Of a stretch of 64,000 nucleotides of DNA, positions 4,310 through 63,465 are shown piece by piece. Location of the stretch: assembly GCA_965226375.1 (NCBI GenBank), contig CBDDCX010000006.1, positions 512,001 to 576,000 of the forward strand, in the 5' to 3' direction. The notes beneath the pieces are model-generated. The model was not told the DNA's origin. It worked only from the letters and a program-made list of their open reading frames with translations, and did no database searches. Origin of the DNA: Longimicrobiales bacterium. Its GTDB lineage: Bacteria > Gemmatimonadota > Gemmatimonadetes > Longimicrobiales > Gaopeijiaceae. The position numbers and the translations under genes are program-made. Each line of letters starts with the position of its first letter. Position 1 is the first letter of the stretch.

Positions 4310-5360
4310 ATGGGGTATTGCCTTAAGTCCACCGCCCACTACATGTTGTGGTCATGGCGGTTCCGGCTTCTCAGCTCCGTGGCGGCGTGGACTATCCCCG
4401 TACGCGGCTGGAGTTGGACGAGTTCTTCCCCGACGATGCGGCATGCCTGGAGTACGTGGAGGGTCTGCGCTGGCCGGAAGGGTTTGTGTGCGTGGGCTGT
4501 GGCGGGTTGGGAGAGGTCTGGCGAGCATCGCGGGGGCGTCTCGTCTGCCCACACTGTCGAAGGCAGACCTCGGTGCTGGCGGGAACCGTGTTCCACCGCA
4601 CGCGCTCGCCCCTGCGTCTGTGGTTTCTCGCTGCCTGGGAGCTCACGAGCCAGAAATACGGAGCCAATGCTCTCGGGCTCCAGCGCGTGCTCGGACTGGG
4701 AAGCTACAAGACAGCGTGGGTCTGGCTCCACAAGCTCCGCCGGGCCATGGTCCGACCGGATCGCGACCAGCTGAGCGGCGTTGTGCAAGTGGACGAGAGC
4801 TATGTCGGGGGCGTGGAGGCTGGAGTGCGGGGCCGCGAGACGATCAAGAAGGCCATCGTCGCGATCGCCGCCGAGGTCGACGGACGCAAGATCGGGAGAA
4901 TACGGCTGCGTTGGGTGCCCGACCTCTCCGCTCCGGTTCTGCGAGGCTTCGTCAAGGATAGCATCGCACCGGCAAGCACGGTGCATACCGACGGATGGCC
5001 AAGCTATCAGGGACTCGCCAAACTGGGCTTTCGCCACACGGTCACGAACCTCTCGACCTCCGGCGATCCCGCTCACGTGCTCATGTCGGCCGTACATCGG
5101 GTGGCGTCTCTCCTCAAGCGCTGGGTCCTCGGAACCCTCCAAGGAGGGATCGCCCGCGAACACCTCCCCTACTATCTGGACGAGTTCACCTTTCGCTTCA
5201 ACCGACGCACATCCCGGGCTCGCGGCCTGTTGTTCTACCGCTTGCTTGAGCAGGCTGTTCAGTGTGCTCCCACGCCAGCTTCGGCCCTTTACCTCGGCAC
5301 CGGACGTGGGAAACGGCCCGCAGAGCCCCGGTAACCACTATTGGAGTGTGACGGGAATCG
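4310..5360 (+). mobile_element. IS1595-family insertion sequence, copy 1 (right end degenerate)
   Basis: Left end ATGGGGTATTGCCTTAAGTCCACC matches the other copies; matches copy 3 until 5341, then only a gapped remnant of the right inverted repeat. Confidence 0.9.
4348..5334 (+). CDS. IS1595-family transposase (ISSod11-like D-D-H type)
   Basis: Zn ribbon CVGC/CPHC, HTH region, [42 protein letters not shown]. Confidence 0.95.
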   Translation: MVMAVPASQLRGGVDYPRTRLELDEFFPDDAACLEYVEGLRWPEGFVCVGCGGLGEVWRASRGRLVCPHCRRQTSVLAGTVFHRTRSPLRLWFLAAWELTSQKYGANALGLQRVLGLGSYKTAWVWLHKLRRAMVRPDRDQLSGVVQVDESYVGGVEAGVRGRETIKKAIVAIAAEVDGRKIGRIRLRWVPDLSAPVLRGFVKDSIAPASTVHTDGWPSYQGLAKLGFRHTVTNLSTSGDPAHVLMSAVHRVASLLKRWVLGTLQGGIAREHLPYYLDEFTFRFNRRTSRARGLLFYRLLEQAVQCAPTPASALYLGTGRGKRPAEPR

Positions 5361-58153: not shown

Positions 58154-59302
58154 TCATGACCTCAACCTGGGGTCTAACGCGTCTCTCAGGCCATCTCCGA
58201 CCAGGTTGAACGCCACCACCGTGAAAACGATGGCGAGGCCCGGGAAGGTGGAGATCCACCAAGCGCCGAGCAGGTTGTCACGGCCGGCGGCCACCATCGA
58301 GCCCCACGAGGGGGTGGGCGGCTGGATCCCAATACCCAGAAAGGAAAGTCCGGCCTCGAGGATGATCACGTTACCTATGCCCAGAGTCGCGGCCACGATT
58401 ACGGGCGCCATGGTGTTGGGGATCACATGACGAAGGATGATGCGCGTCCGCGTGAAGCCTAAGGCGTGAGCCGCCTGAATGAATTCGCACTCCCGCAAGC
58501 TGAGCACTTCCCCCCGCACCAAGCGGGTGGTCCCGGGCCACTGTGTGAACCCGAGGACGGCAATGATCAAGAGGATGGAGGATTGATTGAAGAGGGCGAT
58601 GATCACGATGAGAAGCACGAGAGGCGGAAACGAGATGACCATGTCGACAAAGCGCATGACAACCGCGTCGACCTTTCCTCCCAGAAAGCCCGAGATCGCG
58701 CCCAGCAGTGTCCCGATGGTCACGCTGATCCCCACGGCTACGAACCCGATGGATAGGGAGATCCGCGCCCCGTAAAGGATGCGTGAGAACACATCGCGGG
58801 CCAGACCGTCCGTGCCGAGGGGAAAACCACCACCGGGGGCCAGCATCCTCTGAGTGGTCAGCGAGTTCTGGACCGTCGGATCGTGGGGAGAGATCAGGGG
58901 AGTAATCAGAGCTGTGAGGTATAGGCATGTAAGGATGATCAAGCCGACGACCGCAATCCGGTTCCGCCTGAAGGCCCGCACGGCCATGCTCCAGTGGCTG
59001 ACCCCTTCCTTACTCACGGATTCGGAGCGCGTCACGTCGCTCATCGACCACGCCCAGGCGACGAGAAGTCCGGCCACCACGGTCAGCGCCGCGAGGCGAT
59101 GATCCCCTGGACCTGCCCAAGCGGCTCGGAACCGGCCCGCCCGTGTCGCGAGCACACCCATGAAGCCGATCCACACCAGGAGGCTCATGGTTCCGACTCC
59201 CCAACGGCCAGCTAGAAGTTGGGGAAGTCCGGGCAACACCGCCGAGAGCGGCGCTCCTCCACGGCCTGGGCGCGGCGGACGGTTTACCGCGGGATCAGTC
59301 AT
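58154..59302 (-). CDS. Oligopeptide ABC permease (OppC/DppC-type) with an N-terminal extension
   Basis: [46 protein letters not shown]. Confidence 0.92.
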
Positions 59303-59755
59303 ACCGGATCCTCGGGTCCACCACGGCATAGAGCAGATCCGCGATCAGGTTACCGATCACGACCATATTGCCGAAGATGAGGCTCCCGCCCATGATCACC
59401 GGATAGTCCCGCTGTGAGATGCCGTCGACGATCAGCTTGCCCATCCCCGGCCAGGCAAAGACCCACTCGATGAACACAGTCCCACTGAAGAGAAAGGGAA
59501 GGTAGAGCCCAAGCAGCGTGATGACCGGAATGAGCCCGTTGCGCAGTGCGTGCTTCATGACGACCACCGGCTCGGAGAGCCCCTTGGCGCGAGCCGTCCG
59601 AACGAAGTCCTGGCGGATCACCTCCAACATGCTGCCGCGAGTGAATCGCGCAATTCCGGCCGCCAGCACCAGGGACAGCGAAGTGGCCGGAAGCGCCAGG
59701 TGCATGAACCTGTCCTGCACCTTCTGCAGTGGAGACATGAACGGGTATTGGGCCA

Positions 59756-60802
59756 ATGGGGTATTGCCTTAAGTCCACCGCCCACTACATGTTGTGGTCA
59801 TGGCGGTTCCGGCTTCTCAGCTCCGTGGCGGCGTGGACTATCCCCGTACGCGGCTGGAGTTGGACGAGTTCTTCCCCGACGATGCGGCATGCCTGGAGTA
59901 CGTGGAGGGTCTGCGCTGGCCGGAAGGGTTTGTGTGCGTGGGCTGTGGCGGGTTGGGAGAGGTCTGGCGAGCATCGCGGGGGCGTCTCGTCTGCCCACAC
60001 TGTCGAAGGCAGACCTCGGTGCTGGCGGGAACCGTGTTCCACCGCACGCGCTCGCCCCTGCGTCTGTGGTTTCTCGCTGCCTGGGAGCTCACGAGCCAGA
60101 AATACGGAGCCAATGCTCTCGGGCTCCAGCGCGTGCTCGGACTGGGAAGCTACAAGACAGCGTGGGTCTGGCTCCACAAGCTCCGCCGGGCCATGGTCCG
60201 ACCGGATCGCGACCAGCTGAGCGGCGTTGTGCAAGTGGACGAGAGCTATGTCGGGGGCGTGGAGGCTGGAGTGCGGGGCCGCGAGACGATCAAGAAGGCC
60301 ATCGTCGCGATCGCCGCCGAGGTCGACGGACGCAAGATCGGGAGAATACGGCTGCGTTGGGTGCCCGACCTCTCCGCTCCGGTTCTGCGAGGCTTCGTCA
60401 AGGATAGCATCGCACCGGCAAGCACGGTGCATACCGACGGATGGCCAAGCTATCAGGGACTCGCCAAACTGGGCTTTCGCCACACGGTCACGAACCTCTC
60501 GACCTCCGGCGATCCCGCTCACGTGCTCATGTCGGCCGTACATCGGGTGGCGTCTCTCCTCAAGCGCTGGGTCCTCGGAACCCTCCAAGGAGGGATCGCC
60601 CGCGAACACCTCCCCTACTATCTGGACGAGTTCACCTTTCGCTTCAACCGACGCACATCCCGGGCTCGCGGCCTGTTGTTCTACCGCTTGCTTGAGCAGG
60701 CTGTTCAGTGTGCTCCCACGCCAGCTTCGGCCCTTTACCTCGGCACCGGACGTGGGAAACGGCCCGCAGAGCCCCGGTAACCACTATATCTTGGGGTCGG
60801 TG
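59756..60802 (+). mobile_element. IS1595-family element, copy 2 (right inverted repeat truncated)
   Basis: Matches copy 3 up to ...TTGGGGTCGGTG at 60802. Confidence 0.9.
59794..60780 (+). CDS. IS1595-family transposase, copy 2
   Basis: Protein identical to 4348-5334. Confidence 0.95.
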   Translation: MVMAVPASQLRGGVDYPRTRLELDEFFPDDAACLEYVEGLRWPEGFVCVGCGGLGEVWRASRGRLVCPHCRRQTSVLAGTVFHRTRSPLRLWFLAAWELTSQKYGANALGLQRVLGLGSYKTAWVWLHKLRRAMVRPDRDQLSGVVQVDESYVGGVEAGVRGRETIKKAIVAIAAEVDGRKIGRIRLRWVPDLSAPVLRGFVKDSIAPASTVHTDGWPSYQGLAKLGFRHTVTNLSTSGDPAHVLMSAVHRVASLLKRWVLGTLQGGIAREHLPYYLDEFTFRFNRRTSRARGLLFYRLLEQAVQCAPTPASALYLGTGRGKRPAEPR

Positions 60803-60820
60803 TCTTCTGATGTCGTTGGG

Positions 60821-60890
60821 ATGGAGAAGGGCTCCGGGATCGTTGTGTGCCCGTACAATGAGGCTTGGCCGCTCGAGTTCGAGCGAGTTC
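60821..60890 (+). pseudogene. 5' fragment of a GrpB/UPF0157-like gene
   Basis: MEKGSGIVVCPYNEAWPLEFERV resembles the GrpB N-terminal IxVVPYDPxWPxxF motif. Confidence 0.55.
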
Positions 60891-61163
60891 GTATTGCCTT
60901 AAGTCCACCGCCCACTACATGTTGTGGTCATGGCGGTTCCGGCTTCTCAGCTCCGTGGCGGCGTGGACTATCCCCGTACGCGGCTGGAGACTGGACGAGT
61001 TCTTCCCCGACGATGCGGCATGCCTGGAGTACGTGGAGGGTCTGCGCTGGCCGGAAGGGTTTGTGTGCGTGGGCTGTGGCGGGTTGGGAGAGGTCTGGCG
61101 AGCATCGCGGGGGCGTCTCGTCTGCCCACACTGTCGAAGGCAGACCTCGGTGCTGGCGGGAAC
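60891..61163 (+). mobile_element. Partial IS1595 copy (left about 270 bp, lacking the first 5 bp)
   Basis: Matches the element left end apart from GAGAC versus GAGT near 60989. Confidence 0.9.
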
Positions 61164-61819
61164 GGCGTGTTCCACGTCATCGGGCCACCGTAGATCGTGC
61201 TGACCGGGTGCAGGCGGAACTCGAAGTCGGTCACGACACCGAAGTTGCCGCCGCCGCCGCGAAGCGCCCAGAAGAGGTCGGCGTTGTCGTCTTCGCTCGC
61301 GTGCACGAGCTCGCCGTTCCCGGTCACGACGTCCGCGGAGATGAGATTGTCGATCGAGAGCCCGTGCCCGCGCGTGAGGTACCCGATGCCGCCGCCGAGG
61401 GTGAGGCCGCCGATGCCGGTGGTTGACACGACGCCGCCCACGGTCGCTAGACCGAATGCGTGGGTCGCGTGGTCGAGGTCGCCCCATAGGCAGCCGCCTT
61501 GGGCGCGGGCGGACTTATTGCGCGGATCGACGCGCGTCCCCCGCATCGACGACAGATCGAGGACCACGCCGCCATCGTTCGTTCCGAACCCGGGCACGCT
61601 GTGCGAGCCACCTCGGATCGACAGGTCCGCGCCCGTCTCCCCGGCGAAACGCACTACAGATATGACGTCCGCCTGATCCGAAGTACGGACGATCGCCTTC
61701 GGGCGCTTGTCGATCATCCCGTTGTAGACCCTGCGCGCCTCTTCGTAACGGTCGTCGTTTTCGGTGATGACCTCTCCGCGCACCTGCTCGCTCAGACTCT
61801 CGATCGTCGCTTTGCTCAT
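61164..61819 (-). pseudogene. 5' half of an FAD-binding (BBE/6-hydroxy-D-nicotine oxidase-like) oxidoreductase
   Basis: [45 protein letters not shown]; truncated by the partial IS. Confidence 0.88.
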
Positions 61820-61845
61820 ATGGGGTATTGCCTTAAGTCCACCGC

Positions 61846-61861
61846 CCACTACATGTTGTGG
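61846..61861. promoter_or_regulatory. NrdR-box-like palindrome in the IS left end (also at 4336, 59782, 60912)
   Basis: CCACTACATGTTGTGG fits all strongly conserved positions of acaCwAtATaTwGtgt. Confidence 0.6.
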
Positions 61862-62844
61862 TCATGGCGGTTCCGGCTTCTCAGCTCCGTGGCGGCGTGG
61901 ACTATCCCCGTACGCGGCTGGAGTTGGACGAGTTCTTCCCCGACGATGCGGCATGCCTGGAGTACGTGGAGGGTCTGCGCTGGCCGGAAGGGTTTGTGTG
62001 CGTGGGCTGTGGCGGGTTGGGAGAGGTCTGGCGAGCATCGCGGGGGCGTCTCGTCTGCCCACACTGTCGAAGGCAGACCTCGGTGCTGGCGGGAACCGTG
62101 TTCCACCGCACGCGCTCGCCCCTGCGTCTGTGGTTTCTCGCTGCCTGGGAGCTCACGAGCCAGAAATACGGAGCCAATGCTCTCGGGCTCCAGCGCGTGC
62201 TCGGACTGGGAAGCTACAAGACAGCGTGGGTCTGGCTCCACAAGCTCCGCCGGGCCATGGTCCGACCGGATCGCGACCAGCTGAGCGGCGTTGTGCAAGT
62301 GGACGAGAGCTATGTCGGGGGCGTGGAGGCTGGAGTGCGGGGCCGCGAGACGATCAAGAAGGCCATCGTCGCGATCGCCGCCGAGGTCGACGGACGCAAG
62401 ATCGGGAGAATACGGCTGCGTTGGGTGCCCGACCTCTCCGCTCCGGTTCTGCGAGGCTTCGTCAAGGATAGCATCGCACCGGCAAGCACGGTGCATACCG
62501 ACGGATGGCCAAGCTATCAGGGACTCGCCAAACTGGGCTTTCGCCACACGGTCACGAACCTCTCGACCTCCGGCGATCCCGCTCACGTGCTCATGTCGGC
62601 CGTACATCGGGTGGCGTCTCTCCTCAAGCGCTGGGTCCTCGGAACCCTCCAAGGAGGGATCGCCCGCGAACACCTCCCCTACTATCTGGACGAGTTCACC
62701 TTTCGCTTCAACCGACGCACATCCCGGGCTCGCGGCCTGTTGTTCTACCGCTTGCTTGAGCAGGCTGTTCAGTGTGCTCCCACGCCAGCTTCGGCCCTTT
62801 ACCTCGGCACCGGACGTGGGAAACGGCCCGCAGAGCCCCGGTAA
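61858..62844 (+). CDS. IS1595-family transposase, copy 3
   Basis: Protein identical to the other two full copies. Confidence 0.95.
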
Positions 62845-62860
62845 CCACTATATCTTGGGG
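62845..62860. promoter_or_regulatory. NrdR-box-like palindrome in the IS right end (also at 60781)
   Basis: CCACTATATCTTGGGG fits all strongly conserved positions of the NrdR box consensus. Confidence 0.6.
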
Positions 62861-63465
62861 TCGGTGGACTTAAGGGAATACCCCCTTAGGGCCAAGTCCA
62901 CGATGCCGGACGCCGGAAACCAAATGGGCCACTCCCATACGTTTCGAGCGAATAGGCTGAAGGTGAGGATCATCATCAACGCGAGCCAGAACGACGGCAT
63001 CGAATAGAAGAACAGGGCCAAGACCGACGACACGTTGTCGAGGATGGAATACTGCCGGACGGCCTGGATGACTCCGAGGCAGATCCCGAGGATGAAGGCG
63101 ATCACGACGGCCGTTCCGGACAGGAGCAACGTATTCGGCAGGATCTCCTTGATGATGTCGCGGACCGGTCGGTTCTCCGAGAAGGAGTATCCCAAGTCTC
63201 CTTTCGCCAAGGCCCCCATCCACTTCACATAGCGGACGTGGACCGGACGGTCGAGACCCATGTTCACCCGGATCTGTTCGACGGTCTCGGCAGAGAGGCT
63301 GGGACTGACGTATCTGAGCGCCGGATCTCCGGGCGCCAGGTTTACGACGAAGAAGAGAATTGTGGCCACCCCGAGTACGAGCGGGATCACCCCGAGGAGT
63401 CTTCGCCCGATGTACCGGGTCACGCGGCGTGCTCCCGGGTCAACACGACCTCGGTCGACAGGACA

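Follow-up and report, generated by a model that had tools for sequence, protein, structure and literature searches.

Introduction

The insertion sequence (IS) IS231A has a symmetric, A/T-flanked target consensus and inserts into the terminal repeats of Tn4430, a favoured natural target, and IS911 inserts beside a surrogate end. The 'targeted' transposition of IS911 is directed by an end-like sequence. IS30 has two kinds of target, palindromic hot spots and sites adjoining its own inverted repeats, where the incoming copy is placed alongside the tip of the targeted end (PMC9333248). Members of the IS1595 family generate target duplications of 8 bp (7-9) at A/T-rich targets (PMC12561309). Target choice and movement in the IS1595 family are poorly known. 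Here we describe an IS1595-family element in a 64,000-nucleotide window of a Longimicrobiales genome (G000:C6:512001-576000, where C-numbers denote contigs of the window's genome, G000). In this window the element borders a block of DNA that interrupts oppB, a minus-strand ABC peptide permease gene, at a site resembling the element's own left end. We ask how much of this resemblance follows from the element's general target preference.

Results

The empty oppB site resembles the left end of an IS1595-family element

The element is 1,067 bp long, reads A[T/G]GGGG...CCCCCT, and has 26-bp inverted repeats and one transposase gene. Compared by eye, the left and right inverted repeats (IRL and IRR) agree at about 25 of 26 positions (positions 1-26), with mismatches within positions 1-24 at 2 and 11. 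The transposase contains a DDE domain (Pfam PF12762, DDE_Tnp_IS1595; E 2e-29, profile positions 1-153 of 153) and a zinc ribbon (PF12760, Zn_ribbon_IS1595; E 9e-12, residues 28-73), and it matches NCBIfam NF033547 at E 8.7e-56 (189 bits against a cut-off of 75). All domains detected with Pfam and NCBIfam are of the IS1595 type, with no IS30-type transposase domain among them.

In the window, oppB is split by a 3,131-bp block (59756-62886) whose borders are the left end of one IS copy (copy 1) and the right end of another (copy 3). An earlier note on this DNA, made from the sequence alone, had described an 8-bp duplication around the block. The duplication is present and is 8 bp long without an indel, but its two copies agree at seven of eight positions rather than all eight, the mismatch being T versus A at position 2. 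Removing the block together with the right-hand duplication copy gives ...GIVDLAQYPFMSPLQK... and leaves oppB in frame. The restored 20-mer is identical to IS positions 4-23 at 16 of 20 positions and only four central bases differ, as the earlier note had stated. If the right-hand duplication copy were the original one, the match to the end would be 15/20. The restored gene aligns gap-free with oppB, at the same length, in 9/9 relatives' loci examined (for example GMIDQARYPFMSSLEK in G002), so the site is native coding sequence and was not made by the element. The relatives offer no empty oppB site with the same DNA, their closest oppB being 81-82% identical.

Chance matches of this quality are few. 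Among 8.45 million 20-mers, taken from both strands of the 4.23-Mb genome, one non-IS 20-mer matches the end at 16/20 and five match it at 15/20, one of these being an IS copy with an indel. The genome's other 16/20 site and its 15/20 sites are all unoccupied. Those inspected do not fit the WW/T...A/WW core of the target preference described below, where W stands for A or T, and these sites therefore do not discriminate between the competing readings.

The element has a palindromic target preference in two genomes

The genome of the window (4.23 Mb, eight contigs) holds 38 full-length copies at more than 95% identity as well as partial ones, with 45 left and 45 right ends in all. When one genome per species was scanned, the left end turned up in a single further record, OZ252109.1, a Longimicrobiales metagenome-assembled genome of 5.19 Mb with at least 52 left ends (loci L011-L062), hereafter the second genome. 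Its copies are 98.9-99.7% identical to the window's element (alignments exceed 1 kb at 50 of 52 loci), and its best match to oppB is only 76% identical. The presence of a near-identical element in a host this divergent indicates an independent burst after recent horizontal transfer. In a set of 40 relatives of the window's genome, the end motif occurs in one, G002, as a single end, so that the relatives supplied no further sites. In the window's genome a common 8-mer links 36 of the 45 left ends to a right end, and duplications are mostly 8 bp in both genomes.

We rebuilt 31 unique empty sites in the window's genome and 35 in the second. From the former we left out three redundant copies of a repeated site and two internal members of tandem arrays, and later also C8:11515, whose right flank is another IS, and the opposite-orientation twin C8:2231474. 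Dropped from the latter were the inner tandem members L049 and L050, the loci L020, L041 and L058, which show three left flanks for one right flank, and 12 left ends without a matching right end. The target profile covers columns -5 to +12 and was built from 64 sites (29 from the window's genome and 35 from the second) with oppB excluded, giving 128 symmetrised site-orientation rows.

The preference is palindromic, roughly GAWW/TTGNNCAA/WWTC, and the sites take the form (G)(A)WW / T(T)G NN C(A)A / WW(T)(C). The informative columns of the logo, -2, -1, 0, 7, 8 and 9, emerged independently as the same in both genomes. Almost all of the information lies in the A/T pairs on either side of the duplication and in the outermost bases of the duplication itself, an initial T and a final A, each of which is seen in 98 of the 128 rows. 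A weaker preference holds for T-G at duplication positions 2-3 and for the mirrored C-A at positions 6-7; in the second genome, G-A is also preferred before the A/T pairs and T-C after them. At one repeated site, insertions are found in both orientations. The median score of real sites is 9.09 bits, which is reached by 1.6e-4 of genome positions. These results indicate that the element has a well-defined and ordinary palindromic target preference. A transposase dimer that contacts the target DNA with two-fold symmetry, or bends it, is the probable cause of this profile.

The oppB site is an ordinary target and the ends fit the same profile

Scored against this profile, the oppB site reaches 10.09 bits and ranks 22nd of 64 among real sites. 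It is thus an ordinary good target of the element's preference. The ends of the element fit the profile too. IRL positions 4-21 score 9.06 bits, which is about the median of real sites and the best position in the whole 1,067-bp element, and the mirror segment, IRR positions 4-21, has the second-best score at 8.28 bits. Single-genome profiles give the IRL 9.62 and 7.76 bits, and unsymmetrised profiles agree. A random 26-mer equals the end in any of nine registers with a probability of 3.5e-3 under the weaker profile, that of the second genome alone. That the end carries the target motif is the one non-trivial result of this analysis.

Targets other than oppB also resemble the end at the consensus level. 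Across the 64 other sites, the mean match to the end 20-mer is 7.68/20 against 5.00 genome-wide, and the best of the 128 rows reaches only 12/20. The bases that make the oppB match striking, GGG to its left and GTCCAC to its right, fall in columns without information in the logo from the window's genome. Here, outer flanks match the end 146 times against 130.9 expected from controls sharing the six core bases (z 1.56), and non-core positions match it 259 times against 214 (z 3.6). Because the outer flanks are near expectation, the non-core excess must lie within the duplication, where the end shares the weak T-G preference. Right-flank 12-mers resembling the end, with a one-base shift allowed, show no excess across both genomes (16 rows against 15.3 at >=7 and 3 against 3.2 at >=8). 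G at +9, common to the end and to oppB, is found in only 6 of the 128 rows, and the end-specific positions -5, -3, +9 and +12 to +14 are not preferred.

Since oppB scores as a typical target and the end itself fits the profile, shared preference probably explains most of the likeness between them. We therefore favour, as the probable explanation of the 16/20 match, a palindromic preference common to target and end, with chance supplying the rest. The further nine end-like bases of oppB (GGG, G and TCCAC) come from its conserved Tyr-Pro and Val-Asp codons, and their agreement with the end is probably coincidental.

The main rival is end-like recognition, the mode of target choice put forward in the earlier note. 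Here the transposase domain that reads the subterminal inverted repeat would also pick targets, so that the preference would be a degenerate image of the end and oppB an unusually good image. Several results speak for this mechanism or otherwise weigh against our explanation. The oppB site is an outlier: given the profile, a match of at least 16/20 has a probability of about 5e-5 per row, or about 0.004 family-wise over 62 rows, and it is 0.0012 when the probabilities of the 62 rows of this genome are added up, each conditional on its own core bases. With a flank-only, shift-tolerant statistic, oppB scores 6/8 and 8/12 with control tails of 0.020 and 0.025, which amounts to about 5e-4 per row and about 0.065 over 130 rows, assuming independent flanks. 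The likeness of oppB is suggestive at most, because both the register and the statistic were chosen after the match had been seen. The fit of the inverted repeat to the target profile, in the same register as the oppB match, is unlikely by chance (about 1e-3 to 3.5e-3), and a shared preference does not explain it. Left outer flanks are modestly enriched for end-like bases, with 8 rows at >=6/8 against 2.57 expected. The right flank of C8:2224582 matches IS positions 17-28 at 10/12 after a one-base shift, where 0.09 rows are expected. Outer flanks in the second genome match the end 211 times against a composition-only expectation of 160.9, an excess that we attribute to the extended consensus (G at -4, T at +10 and C at +11) shared by the end. 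Finally, both oppB-IS junctions are taken from the assembly.

End-like recognition has its own difficulties. The profile is two-fold symmetric and the same site can be used both ways, whereas the end is asymmetric. Neither the absence of preference at end-specific positions, nor the gap between oppB and all other sites, nor the right outer flanks, which show no excess, is what such a mechanism would lead one to expect. No insertion was seen into the target-like stretch of 90 resident ends, although only <=0.6 was expected. What stands of the earlier proposal is a likeness at the consensus level, in the same register; outer flanks outside the consensus are not end-like. The octamers that the earlier note had compared with the end core, TTGCTCAT (61812-61819) and TAAGGCAT (left of a partial copy, window position 4310), are present as described, and by eye they match that core at 4/8 and 7/8. 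We consider end-like recognition a possibility of limited weight as the source of the target preference. The extra likeness of oppB, beyond what the preference provides, is probably luck, true end-like recognition being a clearly less likely source of it.

Tandem arrays and a hot spot beside a tip-like heptamer occur elsewhere

At three places the element forms head-to-tail arrays with an identical duplication at each junction (Table 1). The pair on C5 combines one copy of each common haplotype (105T in 12 and 105C in 22 of the 34 copies compared), which implies two separate insertions rather than local duplication. The L048-L050 triple shares a private right-end variant and thus represents one lineage, in which local re-insertion and duplication are indistinguishable. 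From the profile alone, <=0.08 re-uses of an occupied duplication are predicted per 45 insertions; local duplication could account for two of the three arrays.

A 1.35-kb repeat contains, about 36 bp from its end, a 32-nt site that is occupied in five of seven copies, three in one orientation and two in the other, which requires at least two events. Its duplication is followed by AAGGGGGT, a tip-like heptamer, the sole such case among the 128 rows. It is probable that the element also inserts next to resident ends and re-uses their duplication, which would give rise to the head-to-tail tandem arrays. Together, the arrays and the hot spot hint, in small numbers, at an IS30-like second target class beside ends. 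The view of the earlier note that ends attract new copies thus gains some support from tandem arrays elsewhere in the genome, and none from the oppB block.

A second rival reading is that oppB was entered by capture of a pseudo-end of the IS30 or IS911 kind, its end-like stretch serving as a surrogate end beside which the element was joined. IS30 does use palindromic hot spots or sites next to its own inverted repeats (PMC9333248), and the present element forms arrays sharing one duplication. The oppB duplication, however, corresponds to end positions 9-16, in mid-stretch and not beyond the tip, and a normal 8-bp duplication flanks the block. As the duplication sits inside the end-like stretch, a surrogate-end mechanism does not fit oppB, and we regard it as very improbable.

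A broader proposal would join the arrays to the likeness of target and end. One DNA-binding surface of the transposase would read both its own subterminal repeat and its targets, landing sites would be degenerate copies of the end, and occupied or end-like sites would be preferred, driving arrays and hot spots. We find this proposal doubtful, while giving it some credence.

The interrupting block probably entered oppB as a composite unit

The features of the block and of the sites discussed above are collected in Table 1. The make-up of the block does not bear out the earlier suggestion that IS copies had piled into one another here, since it also holds an 88-bp piece and a fragment of an oxidase gene. 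A search of the genome for a second copy of either found none. The 23-codon frame opened in the 88-bp piece has no Pfam match at E<=10. Copy 1 is without its last 20 bases, the right inverted repeat. Copy 2 and the oxidase fragment are joined across a common CGTGTTCCAC (window 61160-61180), which may mark an illegitimate join at microhomology. The start codon of the oxidase fragment abuts copy 3, and the remainder of the gene is absent. Its best homologue in the relative G002 is 61% identical and lies about 240 kb away from the G002 oppB, making a local rearrangement of the opp neighbourhood unlikely. Copy 3 ends ...AATACCCCCT at 62886 and is followed by TAGGGCCA and AGTCCAC.

Table 1. Positions of the elements, target sites and gene parts described in the text. 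Bare coordinates are window positions; others carry a contig or accession.
Feature	Position	Strand	Remarks
oppB C-terminal part (ABC permease)	59295..59755	-	Ends at left duplication copy; Pfam BPD_transp_1, E 1.3e-35; continuity checked against relatives
GGGTA, left of duplication	59743..59747	+	Equals IS positions 4-8; minus strand encodes conserved oppB Tyr-Pro
Left copy of 8-bp target duplication, TTGGGCCA	59748..59755	.	Read from sequence
IS copy 1, start ATGGGGTATTGCC	59756..60802	+	IS positions 1-1047; 100% identity to copy 3 (BLAST)
88-bp piece	60803..60890	+	Single occurrence in genome; ATG at 60821 opens 23-codon frame running into copy 2
IS copy 2 fragment	60891..61175	+	IS positions 6 to ~287, 98.6% identical (BLAST)
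FAD-binding oxidase gene, 5' fragment	61166..61819	-	Pfam FAD_binding_4, E 9.4e-30; single-copy in genome
IS copy 3, complete, ends ATGGGGTATTGCCTTAAGTCCACC ... GGTGGACTTAAGGGAATACCCCCT	61820..62886	+	1,067 bp; transposase at 61858-62844
Target-like inverted-repeat stretch, IS positions 4-21 (GGGTATTGCCTTAAGTCC)	61823..61840	+	Same stretch in copy 1 at 59759-59776
Right copy of target duplication, TAGGGCCA	62887..62894	.	7/8 identical to left copy
AGTCCAC, right of duplication	62895..62901	+	Equals IS positions 17-23; minus strand encodes oppB Val-Asp
oppB N-terminal part	62895..63423	-	Pfam BPD_transp_1_N, E 5e-16
Two-copy array	C5:241213-243354		Duplication TTTGCGTGA
Array of older, diverged copies	C8:11513-15008		Duplication ATCCCCTA
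Three-copy array, second genome (L048-L050)	OZ252109.1:2768935-2773699		Duplication TTACGACAA
32-nt site, occupied copies	C7:206640-207705; C8:193099-194164; C8:1268399-1269495; C8:1929243-1930308; C8:2230411-2231476		
32-nt site, unoccupied copies	C8:1212662; C8:1776777		

As in a composite transposon, two IS copies bracket foreign DNA, and one 7/8 duplication flanks the whole unit (outer IRL at 59756, outer IRR at 62886). The block probably moved into oppB as one composite unit through the outer ends of copies 1 and 3. Alternatively, a single insertion may later have been replaced through recombination with a similar array elsewhere; the composite unit is the simplest reading.

The region is repeat-rich, and reads mis-joined at shared 8-mers might in principle have produced the oppB-IS junctions as an assembly artefact. 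Both junctions, however, consist of a complete IS tip followed by the duplication, as at 36 other copies, and taking the block out restores oppB in frame and at the length seen in relatives. Moreover, both the tip and the duplication are present, and they would have been lost in a mis-join at the shared GGGTATTG or AAGTCCAC. We consider an artefact extremely improbable. Microhomology-mediated joining at shared 8-mers was rejected as well, complete IS tips and the duplication being present.

Variation among the copies

The apparent length of the duplication is 7-10 bp, because 1-3 T bases follow CCCCC. Between CCCCC and the shared 8-mer lie 0-3 T, and in the window's genome one T is seen at 26 sites, two at nine and three at one. 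The extra T bases are untemplated by the target in 4/10 cases in this genome and in 7/16 in the second. Either the right tip varies in length or T bases flanking the donor site are carried along.

Duplications match across loci in two instances, C6:655468-656533 with C7:147941-149006 and C8:281601-282666 with C8:1869960-1870253. Several end pairs fall on different contigs, which indicates recombination between IS copies, that is, chromosome rearrangements. Two copies, at C8:2261989-2263114 and C8:1268399-1269495, are internally rearranged: a 63-bp stretch (IS positions 247-309) is duplicated in the first, and 28 bp are inserted near IS position 395 in the second. The window holds a further copy at 4310-5341 (G000 C6:516310-517341), which is cut off at IS position 1032 and whose left flank ends TAAGGCAT.

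Discussion

A symmetric landing motif of 16 bp, also present on the element's own ends, emerges from two independent bursts of about 45 and about 52 copies, whose hosts have oppB genes that are only 76% identical. If this likeness reflects shared recognition, it would link end binding to target capture in the IS1595 family and explain the tandem arrays. If it does not, the oppB site illustrates how far a striking likeness at one site can diminish when the element's general preference is taken into account. In practical terms, the analysis provides a target profile with which the element's landing places in these genomes can be predicted. In a literature check that was not thorough, we found no report of an IS1595-family end resembling its own target.

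In its overall design the element resembles members of the IS1595 family such as ISApl4, of the IS1016 group, with a DDE transposase bearing an N-terminal zinc ribbon, a length of about 1 kb and short inverted repeats that start with G runs (PMC12561309). Other features that it shares with the family and ISApl4 are duplications of 8 bp (7-9), a preference for A/T at the target, a large number of copies per genome and pseudo-compound transposons (PMC12561309). ISApl4 is reported to have A/T-rich duplications and no defined motif (PMC12561309), whereas here the duplication has a G+C-rich core with A/T at its edges and flanks, within a palindromic profile of about 16 bp.

The closest parallel in target choice is IS30, which likewise shows two apparent target classes, a near-palindromic consensus and positions beside ends that give IRR-spacer-IRL junctions, with a spacer of duplication length (PMC9333248). 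IS30 belongs to a different family, however, and its spacer is 2 bp as against 8-9 bp here, and end-adjacent insertion by the present element is inferred from three arrays only. As far as the available text of PMC9333248 goes, a likeness of the IS30 hot-spot consensus to the IS30 end is not stated. The difference from IS911 is one of position, as the insertion in oppB lies inside the end-like stretch. Like IS231A with Tn4430, the element has a favoured site near the end of a repeat element, that of the 1.35-kb repeat. In the case of IS231A, it is the end of another element that is targeted; in the present case the target-like stretch is part of the element's own end, although no copy was seen inserted into that stretch.

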